DNA of 64,000 bases from an uncultured Gammaproteobacteria bacterium (GTDB lineage: Bacteria; Pseudomonadota; Gammaproteobacteria; Xanthomonadales; Rhodanobacteraceae): positions 284,149 to 348,148 of the forward strand of contig CAWGHP010000010.1 of the NCBI GenBank assembly GCA_963822465.1, in the 5' to 3' direction. A program made the translations under genes and the position numbers. Below are positions 842-64,000 of this stretch, in pieces. The number at the start of each line of letters is the position of its first letter. Positions within the stretch are counted from its first letter, which is position 1. The notes beneath the pieces were generated by a model, which was given only the letters and a program-made list of their open reading frames with translations, ran no database searches and was not told the origin of the DNA.

Positions 842-934
842 CGAACAATTCTATCCTGAGCCGCGCTCCGCCCGCGCTGGCCGGACGCTCTTCCGGCATG
901 GCACCATCGGCCCGGAATGGCTCAGGAATGCACA

Positions 935-13901: not shown

Positions 13902-13951
13902 AGTACGCGCGATTCGACGCGCTGGATTGATACCGAAGAGGGGAAATCCGC

Positions 13952-14608
13952 ATGGCAGCAGCAGGCAAGTCAGGACGGAAAAAGGCCGGATCACGTTCCG
14001 CTTCGCATAAACTGGTCGCCGCAGCCAAGCGAACCCAGCCGAAAGCAAGGAACAGAACCATGTCCGAGCCGAAGAAACCCGCAGCCGATGCGGACGCAGA
14101 GCGCAATGTCGACCAGATCCGCGACATCCTTTTCGGCGGCCAGATGCGCGACTACGAGCGCCGCTTCCAGGAACTGGGCCAACGCCTCGAAGCCGAAATG
14201 GGACGCCTGCGCGAAAGCCAGGACAAGCGAATGGCGCAGATGGACAAGCGCATCGACGAGCAGTTCGAAAAGGCAGGCAAGCAATTGCGCCAGGAAATCA
14301 GCGATCGCAACCAGGCGGTCGATGACCTCGAAACACGCATGCAGCAGGCCGCGCGCACCGCGCGTACCGAAATCAACAAGGCGCTCGAAGGGCTCGGCGG
14401 CGAGTTGGGCGCGGTCGATGAACGCTTGCGCGATGCACTGGCCGAACTCGGTTCCGCGCTCAACGAACGCGCCAGCGAAGCGGCCGCGTCGATTTCTCGC
14501 GCGAGCGCCGAGCTGCGCGCCGAGAAAGTCGGCCGCGAAGACATGTCCGCGTTGCTGACCGAGCTGGCGCTGCGCCTGAAGGGCGATTTCGAACTGCCTT
14601 CAAACTGA
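13952..14608 (+). CDS. coiled-coil protein of unknown function
   Basis: ORF with GAGGGG 8 nt upstream of ATG 13952 (alternative start at 14060). It has a basic N-tail followed by continuous heptad-like E/R/Q/L-rich helices. No TM or catalytic motif is seen. Confidence 0.6.
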   Translation: MAAAGKSGRKKAGSRSASHKLVAAAKRTQPKARNRTMSEPKKPAADADAERNVDQIRDILFGGQMRDYERRFQELGQRLEAEMGRLRESQDKRMAQMDKRIDEQFEKAGKQLRQEISDRNQAVDDLETRMQQAARTARTEINKALEGLGGELGAVDERLRDALAELGSALNERASEAAASISRASAELRAEKVGREDMSALLTELALRLKGDFELPSN

Positions 14609-14630
14609 CCGGCCGGGCCGTACCGCCGCC

Positions 14631-24965: not shown

Positions 24966-25276
24966 CGATTCAATCACCCGGGCCGGGCCGGAAGGCCGGC
25001 ACGGGACCGCGCGCCATTCCGGTCCGCGCCGATTTGCACTTCTTGCGGTTGCCTCCGGTCTGCGGCGCCAGGGCGCACGGGCGGTTCGCCCGGCCAGCGC
25101 CATCTGCAGCACGCGACGCCATTCATGTTTCGCCGGTTTCGTGACGGTTCGCGCAATTCCCCCGCATTCCCGCGCTCTCATCCTGCAGGCTTCGTTGCAC
25201 TCCGCCTGAAGGCGGATTAAGGTTGAGGTTCGAGTCCCCGCACAGGGGGCGAATGCCACCTGATTGGGGAAACACC

Positions 25277-28060
25277 ATGCGATTGACGAGGATTCTTTGG
25301 CCGCTGGCCTTTGGCGTCGTGCTGGCCGGCGCCAGCGTGCAGGCGTTCGCCGCGAATGCCGACAAGGATGCAACGGTCGAGCAGATCGACAACGCCACGA
25401 TCGTGCAGGCGCAGGGCGTCGACCAGCGTGTCGATTACGCCAGCCTGCGCCGCTTCGGCCCGTGGGACGATCGCAACTACCAGCTGACCCTGGCCGACGT
25501 CGGCCTGCTGCCTGCGGATGACGAGTACCGTTATGGCGTGCCCGCGTTCTTCAAGATCCTCAAGCGCAAGGAAACCGCGGCCGAGGGCTATCCGATCGAG
25601 GAGCACTATCCGCGCGAGATCGACAAGGAGTTCGAGATCCGCTTCGGTGGCCTGCTCCAGGACGGCGTGCTGCACCGGCGCGGCCTCGGCATCTACTCGC
25701 ACCCCGATCCGGCCAATCCGCCGCAACCGCTGATCTACGCCACCGATCCGCTGCCGCATGCCGTGCCGGTCAACGGCGAAACGCCGATGGCCATCGGCGA
25801 CAACGAAACCTCGATCAAGTACAACCCGGTCGATCCGCAGATCGTCATCGCCGGATCCAATGGCCCGGGCGGCCAGGTGCAGAACTACTCGACCGATGGC
25901 GGCGTGACCTGGTCCAGCGCCGGCGTCCTGCCGAGCACCTGCTGCGATCCGGCCATGGAATGGTCGGCCGACGGCACGGTGGCCTATGCCGCGACGCTGC
26001 CTTCGTCGGGCGGCTTGCGCGCCGGCCTGTTCCGCTCCACCAACAATGGCCAGACCTGGGGCCCGGTGATCATCGTTTCCACCGGCAGCTCGGACAAGGA
26101 ATGGATCCACGTCGACAAGTCGCCGAGTTCGCCGTACCTGGAGAATGTCTACCTGACCTGGCACCAGTCCAACGTGATGTTCTTCTCGCGCTCGGTCGAC
26201 AAGGGCCTGACCTGGTCGACGCCGATCTCGTTCCCGAGCGCGGCGCGCGGCATCGGCAGCGACATCACCACCGACAGCGCCGGCAACATCTACTACATCT
26301 GGCCGAGCAGTTCATCGACCACGGCGAACATCTACATGGTCAAGTCGACCGACGGCGGAGCGACCTTCGGCGCGCCGGTAGCGGTGCAGCCGCTGTTCGA
26401 CACCTTTGATTTCCCGATTCCGTCGATGGAGACACGGCGCGCGTTCATCTACATCGCCGCCGACACCGATCGTTCCGGCGGCCCGTTCAATGGGCGTGTC
26501 TATGCCGCCTATACCGCGCTGCATCCGAGCAGCGGAAACACCACGGCGACCAACCACGCCTGGATCCAGGTTGCCTATTCGGATGATGGCGGTGCGACCT
26601 GGGCGCTGACCACGACGCCGCATTCGGAGGCCGACATCGCGACCGTCGACCGCTACCACCCGTGGCTCGAAGTCGACCAGGGCGGTGCCGTGCATATCGG
26701 CTTCTACGACACGCGCAATTCGCCCAACCGCACCGGTGTGGATTTCTACTACAACTATTCGGTCGATGGCGGCGCCACCTGGCTCGACGAGACGCGCGTT
26801 TCCGCGGCCACGTCGGTGAACATCACCAATGGCCAGGAATGGGGCGATTACAACGGCATCACGGCCGGCCCGGTCGAGGCGGCGATGAGCTGGACCGACA
26901 ATCGCCCGGGTGGCGGCGGCACGCCGGTGCAGAAATCCTACGTCGGACGCGTGCAGAACCTCGCCGCGGGCCCGACTTACACGATGGGCAGCGCAGATCC
27001 GGCCAGCGTCGCCGTCTGCGCCGGCGACCCGGTGCCGCCGCGCACAATCACCCTTCAGGGCTTTTCGGGCTACACCGGTTCAGCCACCATCTCCTTCCCC
27101 GGTCTCAATGCGGCGGTGTTCCCGAGCGCCACCGCGACACCAAATCCAGTCACTGTCGGCCCCAGTCCGGCGAATTCGACGATCAACCTGACCACGTCGG
27201 GCGCCGCGTCGACCGGCAACTACCCGGTCAACGTGCAGGCCAGCGATGGCGGCGCGCCGGCGATCGTTCGCCAGGTCGGCTTCACGGTCAACCTCGCCGC
27301 CGGCGTGCCGGCCGCGTCGACCCTGATGATGCCGCCCGACAATGCCACCGACATCGGCCTGACCCCGACCTTCACCTGGTCCGCCGTTGCCGGCGCCGTG
27401 GACTACACGGTCGAGATCGCCACCGACGCGGGCTTCGCCAGCATCGTCGCCAGTGGCACTGTTGCAGGCACCAGCTTCACCCCGGCCTCGACCCTCGATC
27501 CCGAGACGCCCTATTTCTGGCGCGTGCGTGCCAGCAATGCCTGTGGCGACGGCAGCTACTCGGCGACTTCGAGGTTCACGACCGGTTTGCTGATCTGCTT
27601 CACGGGACCGGTGGCGATTCCCGACAACAACACGACCGGCGCGACCGGAACCCTCGCCGTTTCCGCCGGCGGCACGCTCGCCGACCTGAATCTCGACGTG
27701 GTGATCAACCATACCTATCCCGGCGATCTCGAGTTGCAGCTCAGCAACGGCACGACGTCGGTGACCCTGGCGACCCGCCTCGGCGGCAGCGGTTGCGGCA
27801 CCGACAATGTCGATGTCACCTTCGACGACGAAGCGGCCGGGCCGGTGGTCTGCGGCTCGACGCCGCCCGGCATCAGCGGCATCCGCCAGCCGGCCAATCC
27901 GCTCAGCGTGTTCGACGGGTCGCCGCTGTCGGCTTCGTGGTCGCTCAAGGCGATCGATCGCGCCAACATTGATACGGGCACGATCGAGTCGTTCTGCCTG
28001 GTGCCGACCCTGTTGCCCGACCTGATCTACGCCGACGGCTTCGATCCGCCGCCTCCGTAG
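25277..28060 (+). CDS. secreted BNR/Asp-box (sialidase-fold) repeat protein with FN3-like and proprotein-convertase P-domain-like modules
   Basis: ORF 25223..28060. Signal is MRLTRILWPLAFGVVLAGASVQAFA. Asp-boxes are YSTDGGVTWS, RSTNNGQTWG, SVDKGLTWS, KSTDGGATFG, YSDDGGATWA and YSVDGGATWL. The P-domain-like part is HTYPGDLELQLSNGTTSVTL...WSLKAIDRANIDTGTIESFCL. The protein ends LIYADGFDPPPP. Confidence 0.85.
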   Translation: MRLTRILWPLAFGVVLAGASVQAFAANADKDATVEQIDNATIVQAQGVDQRVDYASLRRFGPWDDRNYQLTLADVGLLPADDEYRYGVPAFFKILKRKETAAEGYPIEEHYPREIDKEFEIRFGGLLQDGVLHRRGLGIYSHPDPANPPQPLIYATDPLPHAVPVNGETPMAIGDNETSIKYNPVDPQIVIAGSNGPGGQVQNYSTDGGVTWSSAGVLPSTCCDPAMEWSADGTVAYAATLPSSGGLRAGLFRSTNNGQTWGPVIIVSTGSSDKEWIHVDKSPSSPYLENVYLTWHQSNVMFFSRSVDKGLTWSTPISFPSAARGIGSDITTDSAGNIYYIWPSSSSTTANIYMVKSTDGGATFGAPVAVQPLFDTFDFPIPSMETRRAFIYIAADTDRSGGPFNGRVYAAYTALHPSSGNTTATNHAWIQVAYSDDGGATWALTTTPHSEADIATVDRYHPWLEVDQGGAVHIGFYDTRNSPNRTGVDFYYNYSVDGGATWLDETRVSAATSVNITNGQEWGDYNGITAGPVEAAMSWTDNRPGGGGTPVQKSYVGRVQNLAAGPTYTMGSADPASVAVCAGDPVPPRTITLQGFSGYTGSATISFPGLNAAVFPSATATPNPVTVGPSPANSTINLTTSGAASTGNYPVNVQASDGGAPAIVRQVGFTVNLAAGVPAASTLMMPPDNATDIGLTPTFTWSAVAGAVDYTVEIATDAGFASIVASGTVAGTSFTPASTLDPETPYFWRVRASNACGDGSYSATSRFTTGLLICFTGPVAIPDNNTTGATGTLAVSAGGTLADLNLDVVINHTYPGDLELQLSNGTTSVTLATRLGGSGCGTDNVDVTFDDEAAGPVVCGSTPPGISGIRQPANPLSVFDGSPLSASWSLKAIDRANIDTGTIESFCLVPTLLPDLIYADGFDPPPP

Positions 28061-28084
28061 TCCATCGCGTCCGCAGTCAATCGA

Positions 28085-28114
28085 CCGCGCCCCAGCAGGG
28101 GCGCGGTTTTTTTT
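28085..28114 (+). terminator. rho-independent terminator
   Basis: Stem-loop ccgcgcccc-agca-ggggcgcgg followed by tttttttt. Confidence 0.85.
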
Positions 28115-28302
28115 GGCCGGGCCCTCTTCACCGACGGGCAATCGGCGCGCGTCGGGGCGCGGGCGGCGCAGGCGCCGGAAGGCGATCCATCGGTCTCCGG
28201 ATGGATGTAAAACACGCCCCGCCTGAACTACCATCGCGCCCCGGATCAACAGCTGGTCCGCCCGCCGACGGATCGTCGGCTTCCGGGATTGGGGAAAAAT
28301 CG

Positions 28303-31218
28303 ATGAAGATGCGTGTAGCCGGCCTTTCGATGGCGCTGGGCGTGTTCGCGTTGGCGGGCAATGCCCTGGCCGCCGCTGCCTGGCCCACTGTCTCGCAGCA
28401 ACTCGCGGCTGACCGGGTCCAGCCCGGAAGTGCGCTCGAACAACTGATTCGCGCCAACCAGGACTTCAGCCTGTTGCGCGCGGACGAACTCGCGACCACG
28501 CGACCCGACCTGCCGCCGTGGCTCAAGGTCATCTGGCGCAAGGAGCATCCGAAGGGCAACTACACGGCCGACGATCCGAGCGGCGGCTATCCGCTGGTGC
28601 TGCGCGAAGTCCACGAGTGGATGCTCTCGCACCAGGACCTCAAGCCCGGCACGCCGGATTCCGACCAGTTCCCGAAATCGAACGTGGATCCGGACGCGCC
28701 GATCGTCAATGGCGAGCAGCGCGTCTCCGGCCTGCAGACCAGCCCGCGCAGCGAGTCGGATATCCGCGTCAACTACTGGGATCCGCAGAAGATCATCTCC
28801 GCTTCGAACAACATCAGCAGCGCCGGAACGCAGGCGCAGTTCTATTCCACCGATGGCGGGGCGACCTGGGGCCAGACCAACCTGAGCCTCGCCAGCGGCG
28901 ACGCGTTCCATTCCGACCCGACCGTCGAATGGACATCCAACGGCACCGCGTGGTCGAGCACGCTCGGCATCAATTCTGCCGGCAACGTCCTCAAGCTGCG
29001 TACCTACAGTTCGGCCGATTCGGGCGCGACCTGGACGCTAGAGGCGACGCCGTCGGCCGCGCAGACCGCGGTCGACAAGCAGATGCACTGGGTCGACCAC
29101 AGCGCCAGCTCGGCCTGCAAGGATTACCAGTACATCATCTACCACAACAACGCGCCGGCCTACATCACGACCAGGAACGCGGGCACCGGCACCTGGGGCG
29201 CGCCGATCCAGGTCAGCGGCGCCGAGTCGACCGGCACCGCCATCGGCAGCGACATCAAGTCCAACTCCGCCGGTGACGCCTTCGGCTTCTGGCCGACCAC
29301 GACCAATCGCAAGGTCTTCGTCACCAAGAGCAGCAACTGCGGCGTTGCCTGGGCTACCCCGGTGCAGGTGGCCACGACGTTCGACGGCTACGACATCGGC
29401 GTACCGGGCTTCGCCAATCGGCGCATCCTGATCTACGTCTCCGGCGGCACCTATCGCTCGGCGACGAAGAACATGGTCTATGCCTCCTGGACCGACCTCT
29501 CGGGCGAGACCGGTTGCACGGTCGCCGCCAACGAGCCGGGCTCCAACGTCGCCTCGACCTGCAAGACGCGCATCTGGTTCGCGCGTTCGCTGGATGGCGG
29601 CGCCACCTGGCAACCCAAGGTCATGCTCAACAACCAGGCTTCGCTGAACGACCAGTTCAACCAGTGGCTGGTGGTGGATGAAGCGACCGGCGGCGTCGGC
29701 ATCATCTACTACGACACCGTTGCCGATTCCGGCCGCAAGAAGACCCATCTCTACTACCAGTCCTCGTTCGACGACGGCGCGACCTGGATCCCGGCGGTGC
29801 AGGTCACCTCGGCGCAGACCGACGAGACCACCGGCGGCCAGGACAGCGGCAACCAGTACGGCGACTACAACGCGTTCTCGGGCATCGCCGGCACCTTCTT
29901 CCCGTCGTGGACCGACCGCCGCGCCGGACTCAAGGAAGAGATCTGGACCGCGAAGATCCTCGATCTGGTCTGCACCGCGCCGGCCTCGCCGGTCGCCGGT
30001 GCGGCGACGGCGGTCGCGCCCAACCAGGTCGAACTCAGCTGGTCGAACGGCGCGCCGGCGGCAACCACGTTCAATGTCTATCGGGCGAATGGAACCTGCG
30101 CTTCACCCGGGTCCTTCGGCGCCATCGCCAGCGGACTCGCCGGCAGCCCGTTCACCGACAGCACGGTCTCGGGCGGCCTGACCTACGCCTACAAGGTTTC
30201 CGGAGTCGATGCATCGGGTTCCTGCGAATCCGCGCAAAGCGCCTGCCTCGAGGCCACCGCGACCGGCCAGTGCACCCTGGGCGCCACCTTCGGCGGCCTC
30301 GACACGGCGAGCAATTCGGCAACGGCGACCTGCACCAACAACCTCGGCTGGACGGCGGCCGTCGCGCAGTGCGCCGGGCCGGTCAGCTACAACGTCTACC
30401 GCGACACGACCAGCGGATTCGCGCCGTCGCTCGCCAACCGGATTGCCAGCGGCGTCAGCGGCACTTCCTACCTCGACAGCGATTCGCTGGCCAGCGGGAC
30501 CCGCTACTACTACGTCGTGCGTGCCGTGGACGCCTCCAACGGCGTGATCGATCCCAATAGCGTGCAGCGCAGCGCCGTGCCGACCGGTCCGATCGCGAGC
30601 GCCAACCTGGTCGATACCTTCGAGGCCGCCGGCGGCTTCGACACGGCAGGCTGGACGCACGCCGCGCTCAGCGGCGCCAATGACTGGACCTGGTCCAGCG
30701 CGCAGAGCCAGACGCCGAGCCACTCGTGGGCATCTGCCGAGTTGCCCTCGGTGTCCGATCGCGTGCTGACCACGCCAAGCCTGACCGCGCAGGCAAACAC
30801 GACGCTGAGCTTCTTCCATACCTTCGCGTTCGAGGGCACGCTGGCGACATGCTACGACGCCGGCACGCTGGAAATCTCGACCGACGCCGGCGCAAGCTGG
30901 AGCGTCGTGCCGGATGCCGCTTTCACTGCCGGCGGCTTCAACGGCACGGTCAATTCCGGCTTCGGCAATCCGATCGGCGGCAAGCGCGCGTGGTGCGCGG
31001 GCACGATCGGGGCGATGACCGAAGTCGGCGTCAACCTCGGCGCCTACGCGGGCCAGCAGTTCCAGCTGCGCTGGCACGAAGGCGACGACAGCTCGGCGAT
31101 CGTGACCGGCTGGTTCGTCGACAGCGTGACGATCAGCAATGTCGGTACCGCCAGCGCGTGCAGCACCGGCACCAACGACTTCATCTTCGTCGACGGCTTC
31201 GATCCACCGCTTCGCTGA
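28303..31218 (+). CDS. secreted BNR/Asp-box repeat protein with FN3-like modules and a C-terminal MAM/jelly-roll-like (choice-of-anchor-type) domain
   Basis: ORF 28201..31218. Start is MKMRVAGLSMALGVFALAGNALA, behind gattggggaaa (the same 5-prime context as at 25277). Asp-boxes are YSTDGGATWG, SSADSGATWT, RSLDGGATWQ and SSFDDGATWI. The protein ends FIFVDGFDPPLR. Confidence 0.85.
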   Translation: MKMRVAGLSMALGVFALAGNALAAAAWPTVSQQLAADRVQPGSALEQLIRANQDFSLLRADELATTRPDLPPWLKVIWRKEHPKGNYTADDPSGGYPLVLREVHEWMLSHQDLKPGTPDSDQFPKSNVDPDAPIVNGEQRVSGLQTSPRSESDIRVNYWDPQKIISASNNISSAGTQAQFYSTDGGATWGQTNLSLASGDAFHSDPTVEWTSNGTAWSSTLGINSAGNVLKLRTYSSADSGATWTLEATPSAAQTAVDKQMHWVDHSASSACKDYQYIIYHNNAPAYITTRNAGTGTWGAPIQVSGAESTGTAIGSDIKSNSAGDAFGFWPTTTNRKVFVTKSSNCGVAWATPVQVATTFDGYDIGVPGFANRRILIYVSGGTYRSATKNMVYASWTDLSGETGCTVAANEPGSNVASTCKTRIWFARSLDGGATWQPKVMLNNQASLNDQFNQWLVVDEATGGVGIIYYDTVADSGRKKTHLYYQSSFDDGATWIPAVQVTSAQTDETTGGQDSGNQYGDYNAFSGIAGTFFPSWTDRRAGLKEEIWTAKILDLVCTAPASPVAGAATAVAPNQVELSWSNGAPAATTFNVYRANGTCASPGSFGAIASGLAGSPFTDSTVSGGLTYAYKVSGVDASGSCESAQSACLEATATGQCTLGATFGGLDTASNSATATCTNNLGWTAAVAQCAGPVSYNVYRDTTSGFAPSLANRIASGVSGTSYLDSDSLASGTRYYYVVRAVDASNGVIDPNSVQRSAVPTGPIASANLVDTFEAAGGFDTAGWTHAALSGANDWTWSSAQSQTPSHSWASAELPSVSDRVLTTPSLTAQANTTLSFFHTFAFEGTLATCYDAGTLEISTDAGASWSVVPDAAFTAGGFNGTVNSGFGNPIGGKRAWCAGTIGAMTEVGVNLGAYAGQQFQLRWHEGDDSSAIVTGWFVDSVTISNVGTASACSTGTNDFIFVDGFDPPLR

Positions 31219-31411
31219 GCGCAGCGGGCGAGCCCGACCCTGCATGCCGCCGCGCCCGATTCGTCGGGCGCGGCACAGCGCTGCAGGCGGGCAAGCCGGA
31301 CGGCAAGCGGCAAGCCGGCCGCGGGCAGGTGGCCGCTGCGCCGCAGGCCACGGCGCCTCCGTCGCCGATATGCTAGGTTCCTGCCTCTATTCGACCGGGG
31401 GAGTCGTGCGG

Positions 31412-33847
31412 ATGCGGGCAACAACGAGGATCCTGGCGGGAGTTGCGTTGCTGCTGGCAGCGGCCGGCGCCACGGCGGAAACGCGCCACACCACGCCCTG
31501 CATCGACGGACTGGCCGAAGGGTATCCCTGCAACAAGGTCGACCTGATCGGGCATCTCGGCCTGGTCGAGCTTGGCACCACGGCCGGCGGCAGCGGCAAC
31601 GACATGTGGGGCTGGACCGATCCCGATACCGGCAAGGAATATGCGCTGGTCGGCCTCAACAACGGCACCGCCTTCATCGACCTGTCGGATCCCGATCACC
31701 TGCTGCGCGTCGGTAACCTCGCCACGCACAGCAGCAATTCGACCTGGCGCGACATCAAGACCTACGGCTACTACGCCTTCATCGTCTCCGAGGCGGCCGA
31801 CCACGGCATGCAGGTGTTCGACCTGCGCCGCCTGCGCAACGTGGCGACGCCGCCGGCAACCTTCACCGAGGATGCCTGGTACGGCAATTTCGGCCGCGCC
31901 CACAACATCGTCATCAACGAGCAATCGGGCTTCGCCTACGCGGTCGGTTCGCGCCAGGGCACGCAGCAATGCGGCGCCGGCCTGCACATGATCGACATCC
32001 GCAATCCGCTGCTTCCCGTGTTCGCCGGCTGCTTCGGCGCAGACGGCTACACCCACGATGCCCAGTGCATCGTCTACGACGGCCCGGACACCGCGCATGT
32101 CGGGCGCGAGATCTGCTTCGCCGCGAACGAGGACACGCTGACCATCGTCGATGTCGAGAACAAGTCGGTCCCGGTCATGCTGTCGCGCACCGCCTACGCG
32201 GGCTCCAGCTACACGCACCAGGGCTGGCTGACCGCCGATCGCCGCTATTTCCTGCTCAACGACGAACTCGACGAACAGGACTTCGGCCACAACACGCGCA
32301 CCTACGTCTGGAACGTGCAGGACCTCGACGCGCCGCAGCTGGCCTTCGCCTACACCGGTCCGGTGCCGGCGATCGACCACAACCTCTACGTGCACCAGGG
32401 CTACGCCTACGAATCGAACTACCGCAGCGGATTGCGCATCATCGACCTGTCCAATATCGACAGCGGCAGCCTCGCCGAGGCGGCGTACTTCGATACCTAT
32501 CCGGCTTCCGATGACGCGAACTACGGCGGCACCTGGAGCAACTATCCCTATTACGCGAGCGGCCTGGTCGGCATCAGCGACATGAACCGCGGCTTCTTCG
32601 TCGTCGAACCGAACCTCTGCGTGGCGCCGGCGGCGGCGAACGGACTGGTGGCCAATGCCAATGGCGACAACCGCATCGACCTGGCCTGGAACGCCAGTGC
32701 CACCGCGGGTGCCAGCTACAGCGTCGACCGCGTGCTCGGCGGCTGCACTGGCAGCGCCAGCGAGACCATCGCGACGGGATTGCTCTCGCCCGGCTTCAAT
32801 GATGTGTCCGCGTCCGGTGCGGTCACCTACGGTTATCGCGTGCGCAGCGTGGCCGCCTCCGGGCAATGTGCGGCCGCGCCGAGCGCCTGTGTCGAGGCGA
32901 CCACCACCGGTGCCTGCACGGCGCCACCCGCATTCAACGGAATCTCCAGCGCGAACTCGGCCGGCACCGCGCAATGCGCGATCGACCTGGCCTGGCAGTC
33001 GGCGCAGTCCTATTGCGGTGCACAGACGGCGTTCGAGGTCTACCGGTCGGAGGATCCTGCCTTCACGCCGGCGCCGGCCAACCGCGTGGCGTCGGGCATC
33101 GCCGCGCTGTCCTGGCTCGATGCCGCCGTCGCGCCGGCGACCGCCTATACCTATGTCGTGCGCGCCGCCGACAGCGGCAACGGCAGCGTGGACTTCAACA
33201 ACATCCGGCTCACGGCGACTCCCGCCGGCCCGCCCGGTGACGGCGACTATTTCAGCGGTGCCGAAATCGGTACGCCGATCCTTTCCGGCGCCGACGGCAC
33301 GGCCACCACCGACAGCGCGGAAACGCCGCGTCACGTGGCATGGGAGGTCGTCACCGACCAGGCGCACAGCGGAGCACGCAGTTATTACTCGGGCTACAAC
33401 AACTCCGAGTGCCTGTCGATCGGTACCGACACGATCACGCTGACCGCGGCGACCAGTCCGCAGCTCGAATTCTGGACACGCTACGGCATCGAGGCCAATT
33501 GGGATGGCGGCATCGTGCAGGTCTCGACCGACGAGGGCCAGTCATGGAGCACGATCACGCCGGCCGGTGGCTATCCGGGCACGCTGACCCACACCGGCAA
33601 TGCCTGCGGGATTCCGCTCGGCAGCGGCGCCTATACCGGCACCAATCTGGGCTGGACGCGGCAGCAGTTCGACCTGGCCAGCTATGCCGGCCAGGCGATC
33701 CGGCTGCGCTGGCGCTTCGGCACCGATACATCCCAGACCGCCGAGGGCTGGTGGATCGACGATATCCGCGTGACCCATGCCCAGGTGCCGGGCCTGTGCA
33801 CGGCCGGCATCGACAGCATCTTTGCCGACGGCTTCGAGACGCCCTGA
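31412..33847 (+). CDS. secreted LVIVD/choice-of-anchor-B-like propeller protein with FN3-like modules and the same C-terminal jelly-roll-like domain
   Basis: ORF 31139..33847. Start is MRATTRILAGVALLLAAAGATA. The N-terminus is TPCIDGLAEGYPCNKVDLIGH...DMWGWTDPDTGKEYALVG...YAFIVSE. The C-terminal half is collinear with that of 28303..31218. The protein ends SIFADGFETP. Confidence 0.8.
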   Translation: MRATTRILAGVALLLAAAGATAETRHTTPCIDGLAEGYPCNKVDLIGHLGLVELGTTAGGSGNDMWGWTDPDTGKEYALVGLNNGTAFIDLSDPDHLLRVGNLATHSSNSTWRDIKTYGYYAFIVSEAADHGMQVFDLRRLRNVATPPATFTEDAWYGNFGRAHNIVINEQSGFAYAVGSRQGTQQCGAGLHMIDIRNPLLPVFAGCFGADGYTHDAQCIVYDGPDTAHVGREICFAANEDTLTIVDVENKSVPVMLSRTAYAGSSYTHQGWLTADRRYFLLNDELDEQDFGHNTRTYVWNVQDLDAPQLAFAYTGPVPAIDHNLYVHQGYAYESNYRSGLRIIDLSNIDSGSLAEAAYFDTYPASDDANYGGTWSNYPYYASGLVGISDMNRGFFVVEPNLCVAPAAANGLVANANGDNRIDLAWNASATAGASYSVDRVLGGCTGSASETIATGLLSPGFNDVSASGAVTYGYRVRSVAASGQCAAAPSACVEATTTGACTAPPAFNGISSANSAGTAQCAIDLAWQSAQSYCGAQTAFEVYRSEDPAFTPAPANRVASGIAALSWLDAAVAPATAYTYVVRAADSGNGSVDFNNIRLTATPAGPPGDGDYFSGAEIGTPILSGADGTATTDSAETPRHVAWEVVTDQAHSGARSYYSGYNNSECLSIGTDTITLTAATSPQLEFWTRYGIEANWDGGIVQVSTDEGQSWSTITPAGGYPGTLTHTGNACGIPLGSGAYTGTNLGWTRQQFDLASYAGQAIRLRWRFGTDTSQTAEGWWIDDIRVTHAQVPGLCTAGIDSIFADGFETP

Positions 33848-55268: not shown

Positions 55269-55423
55269 GGAGGCTCCTTGGGGCAGGCCCCCATTGTGCC
55301 GCGTCTGGCGCGCCGGCGCGATTCGTGTCGGCGCAGGCGGATACGTCGCGCGACGGCCTGCCGGCGAGTCGCGGCGGGTTTCGGCTGGCTTGCCTGCGGC
55401 GAACATGGTTCAATGCCGCGATG

Positions 55424-57457
<2,034 letters not shown>

Positions 57458-57487: not shown

Positions 57488-59395
57488 ATGAAGCTGCAGG
57501 TTCCGTTTGTCCAGTTTCCGCTCGATTTCGACGCGGAAGCGCTGCTGGCCGAGATCGGCCAGCTCGGTGAAGATGCGTGGCGCCCGCATCCTCAGGGTTA
57601 CGCCGGCAATTCCGCGCTGGCCCTGATCTCGGTCGATGGCGATCCGGGCAGCGATTCGATCTCCGGGCTGATGCGGCCGACCCCGTACCTCGAGGCCTGT
57701 CCGTACCTGCGCCAGGTACTGGCCAGCCTCGGCGCGGTCTGGGGCCGCAGCCGGCTGATGCGCCTGAGCGGCCATGCCGAAGTGCCGGCGCATGCCGACC
57801 TCGCCTATTACTGGCGTGAACGCGTCCGCGTGCACGTGCCGATCCTGACCCAGCCCACGGTGCGCTTCATCTGCGGCGAGGGCGAAGTCAACATGGCCGC
57901 CGGGGAGTGCTGGATTTTCGATACCTGGCGCCGGCATCGCGTCATCAACGCGGCCAACAGCCAGCGCATCCACCTGGTTGCCGACACGGTCGGCGGCGAG
58001 GCTTTCTGGAACCTCGCCAGCGGTGGCCGCGTCCCGGGACGCCCGGCGCCCGGGTGGAAGTCGAGCCATGTCGCGCCCGATCCCGCCGCGAATCCCGAAT
58101 TGCAGTTCGAATCGGTCAACCTGCCGAGCGTGATGTCGCCGTGGGAACTGCGCGAGCACCTCAACTTCCTGCTTGGCGAAGCGCAGCCCAATCCCCAGCT
58201 GGCGGCTATCCAGGAACAGTGCGCGCGGCTGACCTCGACCTGGCTCGGCCTGTGGGCGCGCCACGGCAGCGACCGCGCCGGCATGCCGGCCTATCGCGCC
58301 GCACTCGATGCCTTCGGCCAGCAGATGAAGTTGCTCGGCCAGGCGGTCGCCCTGCGCAACGGCTCGCAGTTCCTCTCCGCACTGGCGCCGATGATCCTGC
58401 GCGCGGCGCTCGATGACCAGCCAAGGACCGGCATGAGCGACGAGCGTGGCACCGACCCGGATGCCGGGGCGCAAGCGGCGGCAACGACGGCGGCGGGTGC
58501 TGCGCAGGTGGCGACCGCTGCCGTTGCGCCAGGCGCCGCGCGGCGCCCGGCAAGCGCTGGCAGCGATGCGCGTTTCGATCGTCCGGTGTTCATCGTATCC
58601 CCGCCGCGATCGGGCTCAACCCTGTTGTTCGAGACGCTGGCGCGCGCGCCGGCCCTGTACACGGTTGGCGGCGAAAGCCACGGCCGTGTCGAAGGCATGC
58701 CCGGCCTGCATCCGGCGGCGGGCGGCTGGCAATCCAACCGGCTCGAGGCCGCTGCGGCCACGCCGGCGATCATCACCGAATTGCGCGCGCGCTTCGACGA
58801 AGCCTTGCGCGATCGCGAGGGCGCACCCGCGCCGGCCGGCCGCGTGCGCATGCTCGAGAAGACGCCGAAGAACGCGCTGCGCATTCCGTTCCTGCGCAAG
58901 GTGTTTCCCGAGGCCCGCTTCATCTATCTTTACCGTGATCCCCGCGAAGTGCTCTCGAGCATGATCGAGGCGTGGAATTCGGGGAAATTCCGCACCTATC
59001 CGAACATGCCCGACTGGGGCAGCCCGGCGTGGTCGCTGGTGCTCGTGCCGGGCTGGCGCGACCTGCACGGCAAGCCCCTGCACGAGATCGTCGCCCAGCA
59101 ATGGGCGAGGACGACGCACATCCTGCTCGACGACCTCGCCAGCGTTCCTGACGGCCAGGTCAGCCGGATCCGCTACGATGCCTTCCTTGCCGATCCGCGC
59201 GGCGAAGCGCAGCGCCTTTGCGCCGAGAGCGACATCGCCTGGGATGTCGAGCTGGAAGCGCAATTGCCGCATTCGCGGCATACCCTGTCTGCCCCGGCCG
59301 CCGAAAAGTGGCGTCGCCATGAGCGCGAGATCGAGGCGGTGCTGCCGCTGATCGCGGCAGTGCGCGAGCGTGCCGAGGCGGCCAGCCGCGGCTAG
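57488..59395 (+). CDS. fusion protein: Asp/Asn beta-hydroxylase-type cupin (N-terminal) + sulfotransferase (C-terminal)
   Basis: The N-terminal half has HAEVPAHAD (HxD), RVHVPILT, GECWIFD and RIHLVAD. An Ala/Thr-rich linker follows. The C-terminal half has VSPPRSGSTLL (PAPS 5-prime-phosphosulfate-binding loop-like) and LYRDPREVLSS. Confidence 0.8.
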   Translation: MKLQVPFVQFPLDFDAEALLAEIGQLGEDAWRPHPQGYAGNSALALISVDGDPGSDSISGLMRPTPYLEACPYLRQVLASLGAVWGRSRLMRLSGHAEVPAHADLAYYWRERVRVHVPILTQPTVRFICGEGEVNMAAGECWIFDTWRRHRVINAANSQRIHLVADTVGGEAFWNLASGGRVPGRPAPGWKSSHVAPDPAANPELQFESVNLPSVMSPWELREHLNFLLGEAQPNPQLAAIQEQCARLTSTWLGLWARHGSDRAGMPAYRAALDAFGQQMKLLGQAVALRNGSQFLSALAPMILRAALDDQPRTGMSDERGTDPDAGAQAAATTAAGAAQVATAAVAPGAARRPASAGSDARFDRPVFIVSPPRSGSTLLFETLARAPALYTVGGESHGRVEGMPGLHPAAGGWQSNRLEAAAATPAIITELRARFDEALRDREGAPAPAGRVRMLEKTPKNALRIPFLRKVFPEARFIYLYRDPREVLSSMIEAWNSGKFRTYPNMPDWGSPAWSLVLVPGWRDLHGKPLHEIVAQQWARTTHILLDDLASVPDGQVSRIRYDAFLADPRGEAQRLCAESDIAWDVELEAQLPHSRHTLSAPAAEKWRRHEREIEAVLPLIAAVRERAEAASRG

Positions 59396-59530
59396 CCACG
59401 GGCTGTTCAGCGCAGGCTGTGGATCGGCCGGCACAATCGGCGGGACGAAGAAGCGGCGGACACGTTATGCGTGGCTGCCTGCTTCGCTTCGCCAGCCCGC
59501 GATCTTCACCCCAGCCGAGGAGCAGACACC

Positions 59531-60136
59531 ATGGCCGCCAGCAAGCCGTTCGTTTCCGATATCAAGAACATCCGCAAGCGCGCGCGCGAGCACATCGAGC
59601 GTGGCGCCGTAACCGACGGCTACAAGGCCGATCGCGAGACCGTGATCAAGATCCTCAACGAAGCGCTGGCCACCGAGATCGTCTGCGTGCTGCGCTACAA
59701 GTACCACTACTACATGGCATCGGGCATCAACGCACAGAGCGTGGCCGCCGAATTCCTCGCCCACGCCAACGAGGAGCAGGGCCATGCAGACCGCATCGCC
59801 GAACGCATCACCCAGCTCGGCGGCGCGCCGAACCTGTCGCCGGAAGGCCTGCTCACGCGCAGCCATTCCGACTATGTCGAAGGCGACGACCTGGTCGACA
59901 TGATCAAGGAAAACCTGGTTGCCGAGCGCATCGCCATCGACAGCTACCGCGAGATCGTCGCCTATCTCGGCAACGCCGACACGACCACGCGGCGCATCAT
60001 GGAAGAGATCCTCGCCGTCGAGGAGGAGCACGCCGAGGACATGAGCACCCTGCTCGAGGAACTCGGCAAGAAGGGCGAGCCGGCCAAGCCGGAGAAGCGG
60101 GGCAAGTCGGGCGGCGCCAAGCGTAGCCGCAAGTAG
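59531..60136 (+). CDS. ferritin-like/bacterioferritin-family protein with Lys-rich tail
   Basis: ORF 59471..60136, with start MAASKPF at 59531 behind GAGGAG. The di-iron-type pattern is EALATEI, NEEQGHADRIAERI, LVAERIAI and VEEEHAEDM. Confidence 0.75.
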   Translation: MAASKPFVSDIKNIRKRAREHIERGAVTDGYKADRETVIKILNEALATEIVCVLRYKYHYYMASGINAQSVAAEFLAHANEEQGHADRIAERITQLGGAPNLSPEGLLTRSHSDYVEGDDLVDMIKENLVAERIAIDSYREIVAYLGNADTTTRRIMEEILAVEEEHAEDMSTLLEELGKKGEPAKPEKRGKSGGAKRSRK

Positions 60137-60539
60137 CCGCGCCGATCTGCCGCCAGCCCGCCACTCAGCCGTCTAATGAATAGCCGTGGCGGACGATGAC
60201 GTCGCGGTCGCGCCCGGCCACGAGCGCGGCCAGCTGATCGTCGTAATACTCGCGATAGGACTTGTGCGCCGACGCATTGCGCGGCGCGGCCTGCTCGATG
60301 AATTCGCGCAACGGCTCGACGGTCGCCAATACGATGGGAGCGCCAGAAGCGATGCCGGTTGATCAGTAACTCACCCATGTGACGCCGGACTCCCGAGCGC
60401 AGCGCTCCAGCGCGGATCCTGATGTGCCTGGGCAACCAGCCGGGTTGATCGAAAGCCGCGTGGTAAACTGGGCCTGCACGGTTCCCCCGGCAAGGCCCGC
60501 GTCAGCATTTCAATTGCCGTTCGAGAACGGGAGGTCGTC

Positions 60540-61580
60540 ATGCGCTCGATAACAGCGGTAGCGATTGTCACTATCGGATGCCTTGTGGCCGCTCCGGCCT
60601 ATTCACAATCCGCGTTGATGAAACAGGCGCAGGGTTTGTTCAAGCCGATACCTGCCAAGGCACCTCCACTTCCGGGCAATGCATCGACACCGGCCAAGGT
60701 GAGTCTCGGCAAGATGCTCTACTTTGAGCCGCGACTCTCCGAAAGCCACTCGATAAGCTGCAACTCCTGCCACATGATTGGAATGGGCGGCGTCGATGTC
60801 CAGGAAACTTCACTCGGCCACCGCTGGCAGCACGGCGGTCGCAATTCACCTACGGTCTACAACGCGGTGTTCGATATCGCGCAGTTCTGGGATGGCCGGG
60901 CAAAGGATCTTGAGCAACAGGCAGGAGGTCCGCTGGTCAACCCGGTCGAAATGGATACAACCGAGGTACATGTCGTCGAACAGCTCAAGGGCATTCCGGG
61001 CTATTCGGCATTTTTTGGCAAGGCCTTTCCCGGCGAATCCGATCCGATCACTTTTGACAACGTGCGCAAGGCGATTGCGGTATTCGAGGCGACCCTGATT
61101 ACGCCGAATGCGCCGCTTGATCGCTATCTCAAGGGTGACGAGAAAGCACTTGGAGCAAACCAGAAGGCAGGTCTGGAGTTGTTCATAAGCAAGGGCTGTG
61201 CGGCATGCCATAACGGAATCAATATTGGCGGTGGCATGTACGCTCCGTTTGGAGTGGTGGAGCGGCCCGGTGCCGACATCCTGCCACCCGGTGACAAGGG
61301 ACGCTTCGAAGTCACCAAGACCGTCAGCGACGAGTATGTGTTCCGGGTACCGCCACTACGCAACATCGCTTTGACAGCGCCCTACTTCCATACGGGCAAG
61401 GTCTGGGATCTTCGCCAGGCCGTGGCGATCATGGGCAGCAGCCAGCTGGGTGCAAAGCTTGGCGACGATGAAGTCGAAAAGATCGAATCATTCCTCGGCG
61501 CGCTGACCGGAGACCAGCCGAGTGTGACGCTGCCGATCCTTCCTCCCAGCGTTGCCACTACACCTCGCCCGAAACCCTAG
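60540..61580 (+). CDS. dihaem cytochrome c peroxidase (CCP/MauG family)
   Basis: 346 aa with a signal peptide. Haem motifs are CNSCH and CAACH. Also present are FWDGRA and PPLRNIALTAPYFHTG. Third codon positions are visibly more A/T than in flanking genes. Confidence 0.9.
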   Translation: MRSITAVAIVTIGCLVAAPAYSQSALMKQAQGLFKPIPAKAPPLPGNASTPAKVSLGKMLYFEPRLSESHSISCNSCHMIGMGGVDVQETSLGHRWQHGGRNSPTVYNAVFDIAQFWDGRAKDLEQQAGGPLVNPVEMDTTEVHVVEQLKGIPGYSAFFGKAFPGESDPITFDNVRKAIAVFEATLITPNAPLDRYLKGDEKALGANQKAGLELFISKGCAACHNGINIGGGMYAPFGVVERPGADILPPGDKGRFEVTKTVSDEYVFRVPPLRNIALTAPYFHTGKVWDLRQAVAIMGSSQLGAKLGDDEVEKIESFLGALTGDQPSVTLPILPPSVATTPRPKP

Positions 61581-61940
61581 AACACCCCGGGTCTGTGCGA
61601 TGGGCGGCAAGCGGGACAGATGACAATTGGCCGGCACATGGAGGCGCTGGCCATTTGGTGAGGATCCACACAGGCGCAGCATCGGCAAGGTCGTCGGGAG
61701 ATGCGCCGTTCTCCGGTTGATATGTCGACTGCCGTACTTGCCGGTTCCGCCTGCATTGTGATTGTTGAGGATCCACAGGTTCCAGGAGCGCCCAGCGTCT
61801 GCATGCGGAGCGTGCATTCCTGAATCGCCAGGAGGTTCCGCGTGCCTGGTTCCGTCTGGTCAGCGCACGGACCGGCTACGCATCGACGCGCTGCTCGCAT
61901 ACTTCGGCAAATGCCGATCGCGTCGTATGCACCTGTCCGC

Positions 61941-62639
61941 CTAGGGACTCTTGCATTCATAGCCGAAAGCCTCGATTACCGCGCAGTCGCGCCGGGCGAC
62001 GAGGGCACTCAGTTCGGCGTCGTAGTGCCCTGCGGCTTCACCATGCCGCGAACGGTTGCGTGGAGGTTCATGCTGGATGAACTCGCGCAGGGGCTGCGGA
62101 ATCGGCGTGCCGAGGCCCGAGAGGAAATCGAGCAGGTCGGCGCGCAGGTTTTCGACGCGGCCAACGACCGCCGGTACGTTGCCACCGCCATACATGTAAT
62201 CGAAGAGATAGCTGTAAAAGCCCTTCCCGCTGTTGCGGATCGGCGCCAGCGCGAACCCCGGCAGGTTCAGTCCCTGGTTGCCGTAGCTCGCCGGCAATCG
62301 CGCGACCAGATCGTCCAACTTGTCGCTGCCGCTGCCGAGTTCGAGCAGGTTGCGGATCGTGCCGGAAAAGCCGAGGGTGCGATCCTCGCTGACGCAGCGG
62401 AACAGGGCATTCGGCTGCGCCATCTGCGACTGGAAGCTGTACCAGGAGACGTAGTAACTCCAGGGATTTCGCACGAAGCCGAGAACGGGGAGTGAGGCAA
62501 GCTCCGGCGGAATCAGGCTGCGCGGCAGGTGGTAGCCGAGCTGGCGTGCATCCGGGAAAAAACGCAGCAGGCATTCATTGACAAACGTGCCGCCTGATTT
62601 GTGCAGGTGGATGTAGATGAAGCGACGGGTCGCGATCAT
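61941..62639 (-). CDS. sulfotransferase (family-2-like)
   Basis: 232 aa with IYIHLHKSGGTFV (PAPS loop-like HxxKxGGT) and FVRNPWSYYVSWY. ATG overlaps the stop of the upstream hydroxylase gene (ATGA at 62636-62639). Confidence 0.75.
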   Translation of the reverse strand: MIATRRFIYIHLHKSGGTFVNECLLRFFPDARQLGYHLPRSLIPPELASLPVLGFVRNPWSYYVSWYSFQSQMAQPNALFRCVSEDRTLGFSGTIRNLLELGSGSDKLDDLVARLPASYGNQGLNLPGFALAPIRNSGKGFYSYLFDYMYGGGNVPAVVGRVENLRADLLDFLSGLGTPIPQPLREFIQHEPPRNRSRHGEAAGHYDAELSALVARRDCAVIEAFGYECKSP

Positions 62640-63292
62640 GCCCGACGCGCGAGTGGCCGCTCGGCGAAGAGGCGCGCTTCGATGTCCGCATTGCGTTCGC
62701 CGAGGCCACGCTCGGCTGATCCAAGCAGGTCTCCCAGCGCCGGACTTGGCAGGAAATCGCAGATCAAATGGGTTCGTGATTCCTGCTCATCGGCATTGAC
62801 GACGCCATGCACGGCACTGTTGTTGAGCGCCCAGACCTCGCCCGGGCGCATCCGGTAGCACTGTCCAGCACAATACATCCAGGCGTTTTCGTTGCTGGTG
62901 ATCGGAATGTGCACACGGATGGTCTTGCTGAAATAGTCGGCCTGGTCGATATGTGGAGCGATGATTGCACCCGGTGGCAGCAACGCGACCAGGCAGCGCA
63001 TCGGCTGGGCAGGGATCCGCTGTTCGATCAACTCGCGCACATAAGGTAGATGAGGCAGTGCCTCACGTTCCTCGATCGGCAGATTGCCGTCTGCGGGCGC
63101 GTGTCCGCGCAGAAAGATCGCCTGCGCCGGACTGTGCACGCCGACGCGTCCGCCGCTCTGTCCCCAGAATGTCATCGGCAGGCTCGAAACTTCCGCTTGC
63201 AGGCGATGAATGTCGATGGAGATGCCCAAACGCGCGCAACCGCCGATCAGGGCGACCTTGTCGAGAACGGGCTGGTCGGGAAGGTACAGCAT
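62636..63292 (-). CDS. Asp/Asn beta-hydroxylase-type cupin protein
   Basis: 218 aa with IIAPHIDQAD (HxD), RVHIPITS, GEVWALN and RTHLICD. It is collinear with the N-terminal half of 57488..59395. Confidence 0.78.
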   Translation of the reverse strand: MLYLPDQPVLDKVALIGGCARLGISIDIHRLQAEVSSLPMTFWGQSGGRVGVHSPAQAIFLRGHAPADGNLPIEEREALPHLPYVRELIEQRIPAQPMRCLVALLPPGAIIAPHIDQADYFSKTIRVHIPITSNENAWMYCAGQCYRMRPGEVWALNNSAVHGVVNADEQESRTHLICDFLPSPALGDLLGSAERGLGERNADIEARLFAERPLARRA

Positions 63293-63419
63293 GTGGCGCC
63301 TGCTTCGGCCTCTTCTGGATGACCGATTCTATCGCATCGTCCTGGTCCGGGCGTGTCCGGCCGGGCGCCTGCGACAGGTGGATGGTTGTGGGATATGGAA
63401 TGCCGGTTAGACTCCTGCA

Positions 63420-64000
63420 ATGCGCTATCAGTTCGATCCTTTCATTTTCGACGCGGACAATGCACAGCTCAGCGGACCGGGTGGCGAAATCGCGTTGCGA
63501 CCGATCACCTTGCTCGTCCTGAAGTGCCTGATCGAGAATGCACAACGCCTTGTCAGCCACGAAGAATTGCTCGACCACGCCTGGGGGCGTCAGGCGGTCA
63601 GCATCGGCGTGGTTTCGCAGTCGATTCGCGAGCTGCGCCAGGCCCTGGGCGACTCCGCACGCAACTCGACGTTCATTGAAACCAAGCACAAGCTTGGCTA
63701 TCGCTTCCTCGTGCAGCCGCGGGTGTTGGTCGATGAGGAGCAGGCGCCCCACACGGGCGCGCCCGTTACCGCGCTCGCGGACGGATCCGTGCAGGCCCGG
63801 ACTCATCTGTCTCGTCCGCCGTTGTTGCCAAAGTGGGTGGCCGTGGCCTCGACGGGTGCTGTCCTGCTCCTGGGCGTCCTGGGTTGGGCATGGCTCCCGA
63901 TGTCGCGGCATGCCGCCACGGAACAAGCGCAGCAGCAGCCTGCCGTCGAGGTCCTGCATGAAGGCCGGCCACAGGAGCCGCAGGCTCTGGCCTGGTATGT
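63420..64000 (+). CDS. ToxR/CadC-like membrane-anchored winged-helix transcriptional regulator (3-prime end beyond the window)
   Basis: Not in the ORF track because it runs off the edge. My own translation gives MRYQFDPFIFDADNAQLSGPGGEIALRPITLLVLKCLIENAQRLVSHEELLDHAWGRQAVSIGVVSQSIRELRQALGD...KLGYRFLV, followed by a TM segment WVAVASTGAVLLLGVLGWAWL. Confidence 0.75.
   Translation, partial: MRYQFDPFIFDADNAQLSGPGGEIALRPITLLVLKCLIENAQRLVSHEELLDHAWGRQAVSIGVVSQSIRELRQALGDSARNSTFIETKHKLGYRFLVQPRVLVDEEQAPHTGAPVTALADGSVQARTHLSRPPLLPKWVAVASTGAVLLLGVLGWAWLPMSRHAATEQAQQQPAVEVLHEGRPQEPQALAWY

Follow-up and report, generated by a model that had tools for sequence, protein, structure and literature searches.

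Hydroxylation followed by sulfation is a classical reaction sequence in eukaryotes, where it serves, for example, xenobiotic and steroid metabolism and the modification of extracellular-matrix proteins. In the literature, no characterised bacterial counterpart was found. The closest described systems are those of Iyer, Abhiman, de Souza, and Aravind (NAR 38:5261, 2010; PMC2938197), who described gene neighbourhoods and fusions of beta-hydroxylases and sulfotransferases, and predicted, from computation only, a hydroxylation and then the sulfation of the resulting hydroxyl. The coupled reaction itself is, thus, not a new idea. No experimental characterisation of a bacterial fusion between a PF05118 dioxygenase and a sulfotransferase was found in the literature, the only relevant finds being the 2010 prediction and incidental gene lists. 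Among the solved relatives of the dioxygenase, Cpz10 is a small, soluble beta-hydroxylase of caprazamycin biosynthesis, acting on an aminoacyl-type small molecule, a nucleoside-antibiotic intermediate (PMC9814697). The locus described here lies in a stretch of 64,000 nucleotides (hereafter, the window) from an uncultured gammaproteobacterium of the Rhodanobacteraceae (GenBank assembly GCA_963822465.1, contig CAWGHP010000010.1, positions 284,149 to 348,148), and it combines a gene fusing a dioxygenase to a sulfotransferase with a nearby pair of overlapping genes for a second dioxygenase and a small sulfotransferase (hereafter, the pair).

The locus is probably best read as two related cytoplasmic sets, each consisting of an Fe(II)/2-oxoglutarate dioxygenase and a sulfotransferase dependent on 3'-phosphoadenosine 5'-phosphosulfate (PAPS), for coupled hydroxylation and sulfation. 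The first set would be a single bifunctional fusion, and the second a paralogous dioxygenase and a small sulfotransferase encoded by ATGA-overlapping genes. In each, a C-H bond of the substrate would first be hydroxylated by the dioxygenase at the expense of O2 and 2-oxoglutarate. The tethered or co-translated sulfotransferase would then take sulfate from PAPS and place it on a hydroxyl of this substrate, in the simplest case the one just made. Between them, the sets would differ in the position modified, or act on related substrates. As for the substrate, which would be encoded outside the module, it could be either an amino-acid-like small molecule or a peptide or protein side chain. This reading builds on observations, namely, the identities of the domains, their intact catalytic residues, and the recurrent fusion and co-location of the two enzyme types, from which we infer in what order the reactions run, which site is sulfated, and what kind of substrate is involved.

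All the open reading frames (ORFs) on which the original prediction was built are present in the window, at the positions collected in Table 1. The gene at 57488..59395 had been described as a cupin joined to a sulfotransferase through a linker. With Pfam membership defined as a score above the gathering threshold, its 635-amino acid product does belong to both families, and the linker is predicted to be disordered, with a predicted local distance difference test (pLDDT) score below 50 at residues 314-340, and a length and sequence that differ across homologues. An AlphaFold 2 (AF2) model of residues 1-345 (pLDDT 89) consists of a beta-helix core (residues 1-170), a helical domain (approximately 218-304), and the disordered stretch (314-340). 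The helices at 218-304 are predicted with pLDDT values above 90, and the invariant residues of the helical domain are W190, E208, P218-W219-E220, W252, and L255-W256. In the sulfotransferase half, the 5'-phosphosulfate loop is found at P373-R374-S375-G376-S377-T378 and the 3'-phosphate motif at R483...S491, and the corresponding sequences (PPRSGST, and YRDPREVLSS with R483 and S491) are invariant in homologues. The closest fusion found by genome search, 96% identical, comes from a metagenome-assembled genome of Dokdonella sp. Judging by its sequence and model, the fusion would be a bifunctional protein, in which a dioxygenase built like the free-proline hydroxylases is connected by a flexible linker to a Sulfotransfer_3 domain.

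The closest solved sequence to this fused sulfotransferase domain is that of the CurM sulfotransferase (E = 5.8e-6), followed by tyrosylprotein sulfotransferases (around 1e-3). CurM reportedly sulfates a beta-hydroxyl, leading to decarboxylative elimination, and its first rank would suit a role of the sulfate as a leaving group, in which sulfation activates a position for elimination or cyclisation, and the end product carries no sulfate. The presence of LGS1 ('sulfation-assisted ring formation') among the fold matches of the small sulfotransferase points the same way. This alternative is, nevertheless, improbable, as the similarity to CurM is weak and lies mainly in the PAPS-binding motifs, and no thioesterase or eliminating partner is conserved beside the genes.

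The two dioxygenases had been predicted to be homologous, and their domains align with 29% identity over 107 residues (E = 6e-12). Compared with PDB sequences, the second dioxygenase matches 4P7W, an L-proline cis-4-hydroxylase (E = 4.8e-8), and 1E5R, a proline 3-hydroxylase (E = 5.6e-5). These alignments place its H114-x-D116 on the PHRD motif, H162 (in AVHGVVN) on the distal histidine, and R173 (in RTHLICD) on the arginine located 10 residues past that histidine. For iron and 2-oxoglutarate binding, we take the relevant residues to be H106/D108/H154/R164 in 4P7W and H107/D109/H158/R168 in 1E5R, the arginine ten residues past the distal histidine being the one that binds 2-oxoglutarate in both. 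The equivalents in the fusion, deduced from the alignment of its paralogue to 4P7W and 1E5R, are H102, D104, H150 (in RRHRVIN), and R160 (in RIHLVAD), and they are invariant in 16 and in 40 homologues. The full 2-His-1-carboxylate triad of the original prediction is, thus, present, but its distal histidine had been sought in RIHLVAD, and the aligned ligands are H150 and H162, not the histidines of RIHLVAD and RTHLICD; judging by the alignment, RIHLVAD is a 2-oxoglutarate-arginine motif and not an iron-ligand motif. Once properly aligned, both dioxygenases have the triad and the 2-oxoglutarate arginine, and the residues for catalysis are conserved in all four domains (two dioxygenases and two sulfotransferases).

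The fold search of the dioxygenases covered the domain of the fusion, the second dioxygenase being placed by sequence. Foldseek returned 343 PDB matches at E <= 1e-3, of which the 50 best are all 2-oxoglutarate oxygenases. The ranking is led by 4P7W (E = 1.3e-11, 322 columns), followed by 1E5R, Cpz10 (7V4F), human AspH (E around 5e-7 over 164 columns), and then prolyl hydroxylases. The alignments with free-proline hydroxylases cover 280-340 columns, about twice the length of the AspH alignment, and exceed the catalytic core. These best matches, together with a weak similarity to the TIGR04531 'nonproteinogenic amino acid hydroxylase' model and a module devoid of any substrate gene, suggest that a free amino acid or another low-molecular-weight compound, maybe taken up or recaptured through the TonB-dependent receptors that go with paralogous clusters, could be hydroxylated and sulfated. 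This version of the proposed pathway is only tentative: the identity with the proline hydroxylases is low (15-30%), substrate specificity is not transferable, and no biosynthetic scaffold genes were identified.

Hydroxylases of protein Asp/Asn residues and of lipid acyl chains (LpxO, OlsC) had been put forward as the known relatives of the cupins. This stands at the family level, PF05118 including LpxO and OlsC, but not for the nearest relatives, since the proline hydroxylases and Cpz10 rank above AspH, and neither window dioxygenase matches the LpxO and OlsC models of NCBIfam at E <= 0.01. The identification of the window dioxygenases as LpxO or OlsC was, thus, rejected, for want of a model match. 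An envelope lipid modification of this type, with the hydroxylation and then the sulfation of an acyl chain of lipid A or of an ornithine lipid, is very unlikely. The Rhodanobacteraceae neighbourhood would be in its favour, as it has waaA, a lipid A acyltransferase, a PMT_2 (ArnT-like) glycosyltransferase, and DUF2333. These genes are, however, set apart from the fusion by tolC, pcm, tetR, and thiC, in what looks like inherited synteny. LpxO and OlsC are also membrane proteins, and no hydrophobic N-terminus or segment is obvious in the window proteins, whose translations were judged by eye only.

For the second set, a separate sulfotransferase of a different subfamily had been proposed. For the 232-amino acid protein, neither Pfam nor NCBIfam gave a match at E <= 0.01, and its best 120 listed homologues are all without a Pfam domain, and named 'hypothetical protein' wherever they have a name. 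Sequence searches of the PDB, with the single sequence or a 24-sequence profile, gave only sub-threshold matches in the SULT region (E of 0.06-0.1), which made structure prediction and Foldseek necessary. The AF2 model, based on 24 homologues, has a pLDDT of 88, and the top 50 PDB entries that Foldseek matched to it are without exception PAPS sulfotransferases, with probabilities of 0.90-1.00 (most of them 1.00) and template modelling scores (TM-scores) of 0.39-0.56. The HLHKSGGT (K14), GYHLP (H37), and RNPWSYYVS (R57, S65) motifs are invariant in the 24 homologues. Residues 27-72, which hold GYHLP and RNPWSYYVS, align with residues 101-148 of SULT1C2 in a sub-threshold HMMER match, HLHKSGGT lying outside this stretch. 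We take the 'THLP' stretch of SULTs, aligned to H37 of GYHLP, to hold the catalytic histidine, and the 'RNPKD..VS' stretch, aligned to RNPWSYYVS, to be the 3'-phosphate-binding motif, while HLHKSGGT (K14) is presumably the 5'-phosphosulfate loop. On the strength of its predicted fold, the 232-amino acid protein is a sulfotransferase. As no similarity between its sequence and the fused Sulfotransfer_3 domain could be detected, its assignment to a different subfamily holds as well.

A profile search of 1.84 billion representative proteins collected 4050 members of this small-sulfotransferase family at E <= 1e-3, the count (about 4000) being that of representative sequences at 50% identity. Among its distant relatives, one scores on Sulfotransfer_1 (9e-6), and another scores weakly on Sulfotransfer_2, with a gene adjoining that of an APS kinase. 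APS kinase makes PAPS. At locus L092 (6001..7168), an APS kinase comes directly after a distant homologue of the small sulfotransferase, and the two may form a self-contained cassette for sulfation; the contig carries many small ORFs and HNH endonuclease genes, and looks phage-like.

Within the pair, the stop codon of the dioxygenase gene overlaps the start codon of the small sulfotransferase gene in the expected ATGA, which suggests translational coupling. The GC content at third codon positions (GC3) of the pair is 0.71-0.79, below that of the fusion. When positions 61900..63450 of the window are compared with 13345..14900 of the closest related locus (L007), the 3' two-thirds of the small sulfotransferase gene are about 97-98% identical at the DNA level, the identity then dropping to about 80-85% over the 5' end of this gene and the gene of the second dioxygenase, and being lost upstream of the latter. 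This pattern suggests a breakpoint of recombination or synteny within the pair.

Both pairings recur in other genomes. Relatives of the fusion were counted as matched stretches in species-representative genomes, where at least 589 were found, mostly in Rhodanobacteraceae and other Xanthomonadales, and also in Steroidobacteraceae, Caulobacteraceae, and Hyphomonadaceae. Both domains are present in 120 of the best 120 fusion homologues. The small sulfotransferase, for its part, is fused in other lineages to a PF05118 dioxygenase in the reverse order, with the sulfotransferase first (P0264, P0270, P0277, P0292, and P0323), and some of these reverse-order fusions also carry TPR repeats or a SEC-C motif. 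One 1025-amino acid protein (P0296, encoded by L087 396..3473) unites, in a single chain, the small sulfotransferase with a PF05118 dioxygenase, some eight TPR repeats, and Sulfotransfer_3. In these small-sulfotransferase fusions, P0296 included, the dioxygenase domain resembles the second dioxygenase more than the fused one. The gene of P0296 adjoins further TPR-sulfotransferase genes and a multi-haem cytochrome gene.

Neighbourhoods were examined in 80 related loci, of which 65 are informative, with enough downstream sequence (flank of up to 10 kb). The pair behaves as a unit, both genes being present in 16 of the 65 loci and a single one in none; nor is it split in any of the 80 loci. In one locus with a thiC context (L005), the convergent fusion and pair are next to each other, only 8 nucleotides apart, and in a thiC-less island with a TonB-dependent receptor they are close, with one 374-amino acid gene between them. 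The independent pairing of one hydroxylase family with two sulfotransferase types is, thus, borne out by the fusions, the reverse-order fusions, P0296, the intact pair, and the proximity of fusion and pair in two different contexts. Since fusions recur, a functional coupling of hydroxylase and sulfotransferase is well supported at the level of sequence. As side observations on the fusion itself, Rhodanobacter sp. B05 (L050 7976..11851) carries two tandem copies where other species have thiC and then the fusion, and a second, partial copy occurs in L029.

Several points weigh against the proposed pathway of coupled hydroxylation and sulfation. The pair is absent from the retrieved downstream flank (up to 10 kb) in 49 of the 65 fusion loci, and the two sets are, thus, not obligatorily linked. 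Fusions prove a shared pathway or substrate, not that the sulfate is placed on the new hydroxyl. Furthermore, the activities of the module members are computational predictions, and no PAPS-synthesis gene was found among the window ORFs scanned against Pfam. Lastly, the substrate class is ambiguous, the nearest structures pointing to free amino acids or a nucleoside intermediate, and the relatives of the pair to a peptide or protein.

That no substrate gene is evident had been noted from the start. In the search for one, 29 further window ORFs across 0.9-55 kb were annotated, and 779 neighbouring ORFs of the fetched loci were clustered. No peptide-like, collagen-like, or nonribosomal or ribosomal peptide synthesis gene was found among the window ORFs scanned, and no precursor-like, collagen-like, or tail-collar gene among the listed neighbour families, of which the larger ones were annotated. 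The intergenic gaps in L005, of 8-100 nucleotides, indicate that the compact module itself holds no substrate gene.

The alternative version of the proposed pathway, compatible with it like the small-molecule one and of similar weight, is the modification of side chains (e.g., of Asp or Asn) in a ribosomally made peptide, or in a cellular or secreted protein, encoded elsewhere. It is equally tentative. In one low-GC metagenomic contig (L089, genes at 85..813, 815..1414, 1411..2130, and 2386..2670), a homologous dioxygenase and a small sulfotransferase, overlapping by 4 nucleotides, are flanked by an HprK-related kinase on one side and a lasso-peptide PqqD chaperone on the other. A 54-amino acid precursor-like ORF (…KPVVQKLDIKQTEFGTNTNTDATRYS) at 2127..2291 on the minus strand presumably resembles a paeninodin-type lasso precursor, but it sits on the opposite strand and is a candidate only. 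In a published gene list, a sulfotransferase and an aspartyl beta-hydroxylase are numbered between lasso B2, PqqD, and asparagine-synthase entries (PMC10040529), and CanE is an Fe/2-oxoglutarate lasso-peptide Asp beta-hydroxylase (PMC8498205). The fusions of relatives to TPR or SEC-C and this lasso-cluster context suggest peptide or protein targets, and count against small molecules. The resemblance of the fused domain to tyrosylprotein sulfotransferases adds to this, and protein substrates had also been predicted by Iyer et al. (PMC2938197). On the other side, no lasso precursor, PqqD/B1, B2 protease, or C cyclase was found among the scanned window ORFs or in compact relatives, and neither the module nor the scanned ORFs hold a precursor, protease, cyclase, or exporter. 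The window fusion and pair proteins carry no TPR or SEC-C domain in Pfam, and the nearest solved structures act on small molecules.

The small-molecule version finds further arguments in accessory islands, where the fusion recurs alongside a TonB-dependent receptor, several TPR-Sulfotransfer_3 genes, and P4H-like, PiuC-like, and JmjC oxygenases. On a short contig (L096), in a row of three genes, a relative of the small sulfotransferase stands between a Sulfotransfer_3 gene and SapC. A TPR-hydroxylase gene of the islands matches the OlsC model at 3e-21. A 358-amino acid island gene has no Pfam or NCBIfam match, and its sequence is read as sulfotransferase-like. The densest island (L093 6069..16696) gathers, within about 10 kb, a TonB-dependent receptor, a TPR-sulfotransferase, a 2-oxoglutarate oxygenase, a TPR-hydroxylase, the fusion, a 374-amino acid methyltransferase-like gene, the pair, and a gene combining Sel1 with a 2-oxoglutarate oxygenase.

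Table 1. Features of the dioxygenase-sulfotransferase locus and of its immediate context in the window (aa, amino acids).
Feature	Position	Strand	Evidence and remarks
Fused gene, dioxygenase core (double-stranded beta-helix)	57488..58012	+	aa 1-175; PF05118 (Asp_Arg_Hydrox) at aa 68-167, 47.6 bits (cut-off 22.6)
Fused gene, conserved helical domain	58013..58417	+	aa 176-310; without Pfam match
Fused gene, Ala/Thr-rich flexible linker	58418..58573	+	aa 311-362; low pLDDT, variable among homologues
Fused gene, PAPS-type sulfotransferase domain (Sulfotransfer_3)	58574..59395	+	aa 363-635; PF13469 at aa 366-586, 101.3 bits (cut-off 27)
Small sulfotransferase, 232 aa	61941..62639	-	predicted fold and motifs; without family model; K14, H37, R57, S65
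Second Fe(II)/2-oxoglutarate dioxygenase, 218 aa	62636..63292	-	PF05118, 55.1 bits (cut-off 22.6)
Thiamine pyrophosphate (TPP) riboswitch aptamer	55418..55527	+	Rfam RF00059, 57.6 bits vs gathering score 54.3, E = 2.5e-9; context, outside the module
thiC (phosphomethylpyrimidine synthase)	55580..57457	+	PF01964, 619 bits; NCBIfam ThiC equivalog, 1079 bits
Ferritin-like protein, Lys/Arg-rich C-terminal tail	59471..60136	+	PF00210, 100 bits; 75 nucleotides downstream of the fusion
Di-haem cytochrome c peroxidase / MauG-like	60540..61580	+	PF03150, 186 bits

Upstream of the fusion, the features of the thiC junction that had been pointed out were all recovered, including the TPP riboswitch. The gap of 30 nucleotides between thiC and the fusion holds a purine-rich, ribosome-binding-like site (GGTGAAGG), and no terminator-like site was found in it. 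Read-through or co-transcription from thiC into the fusion is plausible in this genome. This arrangement would also suit a thiamine-related function, with the fusion as part of a thiC operon controlled by the riboswitch, as would the direct adjacency of thiC to the fusion in 17 of the 65 loci (gaps of 17-204 nucleotides). Such a function is, however, most unlikely: thiC is further upstream in 10 loci and absent from the flank in 38, no TPP riboswitch was found upstream of the fusion in six thiC-less Rhodanobacter loci (ordered tetR-fusion-ferritin), and the fusion also occurs without thiC in the receptor islands and in Alphaproteobacteria. Given this partial adjacency and the thiC-less loci devoid of riboswitch, the link with thiC would be positional, reflecting lineage synteny, rather than a conserved functional one. 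In Xanthomonadales, the gene order is waaA, tolC, pcm, tetR, [thiC], fusion, [pair], [ferritin], DUF2333, PMT_2, and ppa, where brackets indicate variable members.

A ferritin-like gene is found downstream of the fusion in 31 of the 65 loci, many of them without thiC. The peroxidase gene of the window has a GC content of 0.58 and a GC3 of 0.66, compared with a GC3 of 0.83-0.90 for its neighbours, and, among the 80 loci, is present only in L007. Given this low GC and its restriction to the window and L007, the gene was probably inserted recently, between the ferritin-like gene and the pair, and it probably lies outside the module. Divergently from the second dioxygenase, a gene starting at 63420 on the plus strand and running off the window (63420..64000) encodes a winged-helix Trans_reg_C domain (E = 7e-16) followed by a hydrophobic segment, and is presumably a CadC/ToxR-like regulator. 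Genes combining Trans_reg_C with TPR (787-797 amino acids) are located 4.3-4.5 kb from the pair in L005 and L095. Further away, at 25145..33847 on the plus strand, three consecutive large ORFs (about 970, 1080, and 905 amino acids) encode BNR/Asp-box, Reelin subrepeat-B, LVIVD, and InhA-like MAM domains, with an unusually low GC content at the first codon position (0.58-0.61); these proteins may be secreted.

What is new here is a well-defined and widespread bifunctional fusion, a sulfotransferase family without a curated model, and the occurrence of both sulfotransferase types, a dioxygenase, and TPR in one chain. The fusion family is large, and sits in a stable chromosomal region of the Rhodanobacteraceae. 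Its single, compact polypeptide should perform both steps, which makes the 2010 prediction directly testable. The locus also defines a family of about 4000 representative sulfotransferases now annotated as hypothetical. In a bolder view, which is speculative, bacteria would possess a widespread cytoplasmic pathway that equips proteins, peptides, or free amino acids with an O-sulfated hydroxy residue (e.g., beta-sulfo-oxy-Asp/-Asn), by means of bifunctional enzymes and the small sulfotransferase family, the same toolkit being reused in lasso clusters and in TonB-receptor islands with multiple oxygenases and sulfotransferases. We know of no hydroxylation-dependent sulfation of this kind, such as beta-sulfo-oxy-Asp/-Asn, in bacteria. 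Once identified, the product could prove to be a sulfated metabolite or a post-translational modification not seen before.

Compared with the systems of Iyer et al., the enzyme families and the logic are the same, and the related loci share TonB-type receptors, SapC, and JmjC with them. Those clusters add fusions of PhyH to methyltransferases, PAPS synthetases, and putative collagen-like or tail-collar substrates, none of which was seen here, and the text consulted does not mention the thiC-linked fusion of Rhodanobacteraceae or the Pfam-less small sulfotransferase family (PMC2938197). Lasso-peptide tailoring systems offer a second parallel, the homologous pair of L089 lying in a lasso-type cluster, whereas the window has neither lasso machinery nor a precursor among the scanned ORFs.

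With regard to the dioxygenases, 4P7W and 1E5R are the best matches and share the HxD...H...R spacing, but they stand alone, act on free L-proline, and are unlinked to sulfotransferases. Cpz10 (7V4F) is likewise similar, with 25% identity and a TM-score of 0.76 (normalised to the target, over the catalytic core); unlike the fusion, it belongs to an actinomycete antibiotic cluster, and has neither a fused sulfotransferase nor a helical domain. AspH, LpxO, and OlsC share the PF05118 family and are best regarded as family-level relatives, given the ranking of AspH below the proline hydroxylases and the unmatched LpxO and OlsC models. Going by the titles of the PDB entries matched, AspH possesses a TPR domain, absent from the window proteins, and acts on a Factor X peptide. 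AspH is membrane-anchored and holds its iron by two histidines only, unlike the window dioxygenases, which have the full HxD...H triad.

As for the sulfotransferases, the fused domain has the PRSGST loop and the RDP...S motif of CurM and of the tyrosylprotein sulfotransferases, while the small one has the predicted fold of cytosolic SULTs, its residues 27-72 aligning with SULT1C2. It differs from SULTs by its length of only 232 amino acids, TM-scores to them of about 0.5, and the lack of a family model. In contrast with SULTs and CurM, both window sulfotransferases are fused or coupled to a dioxygenase.

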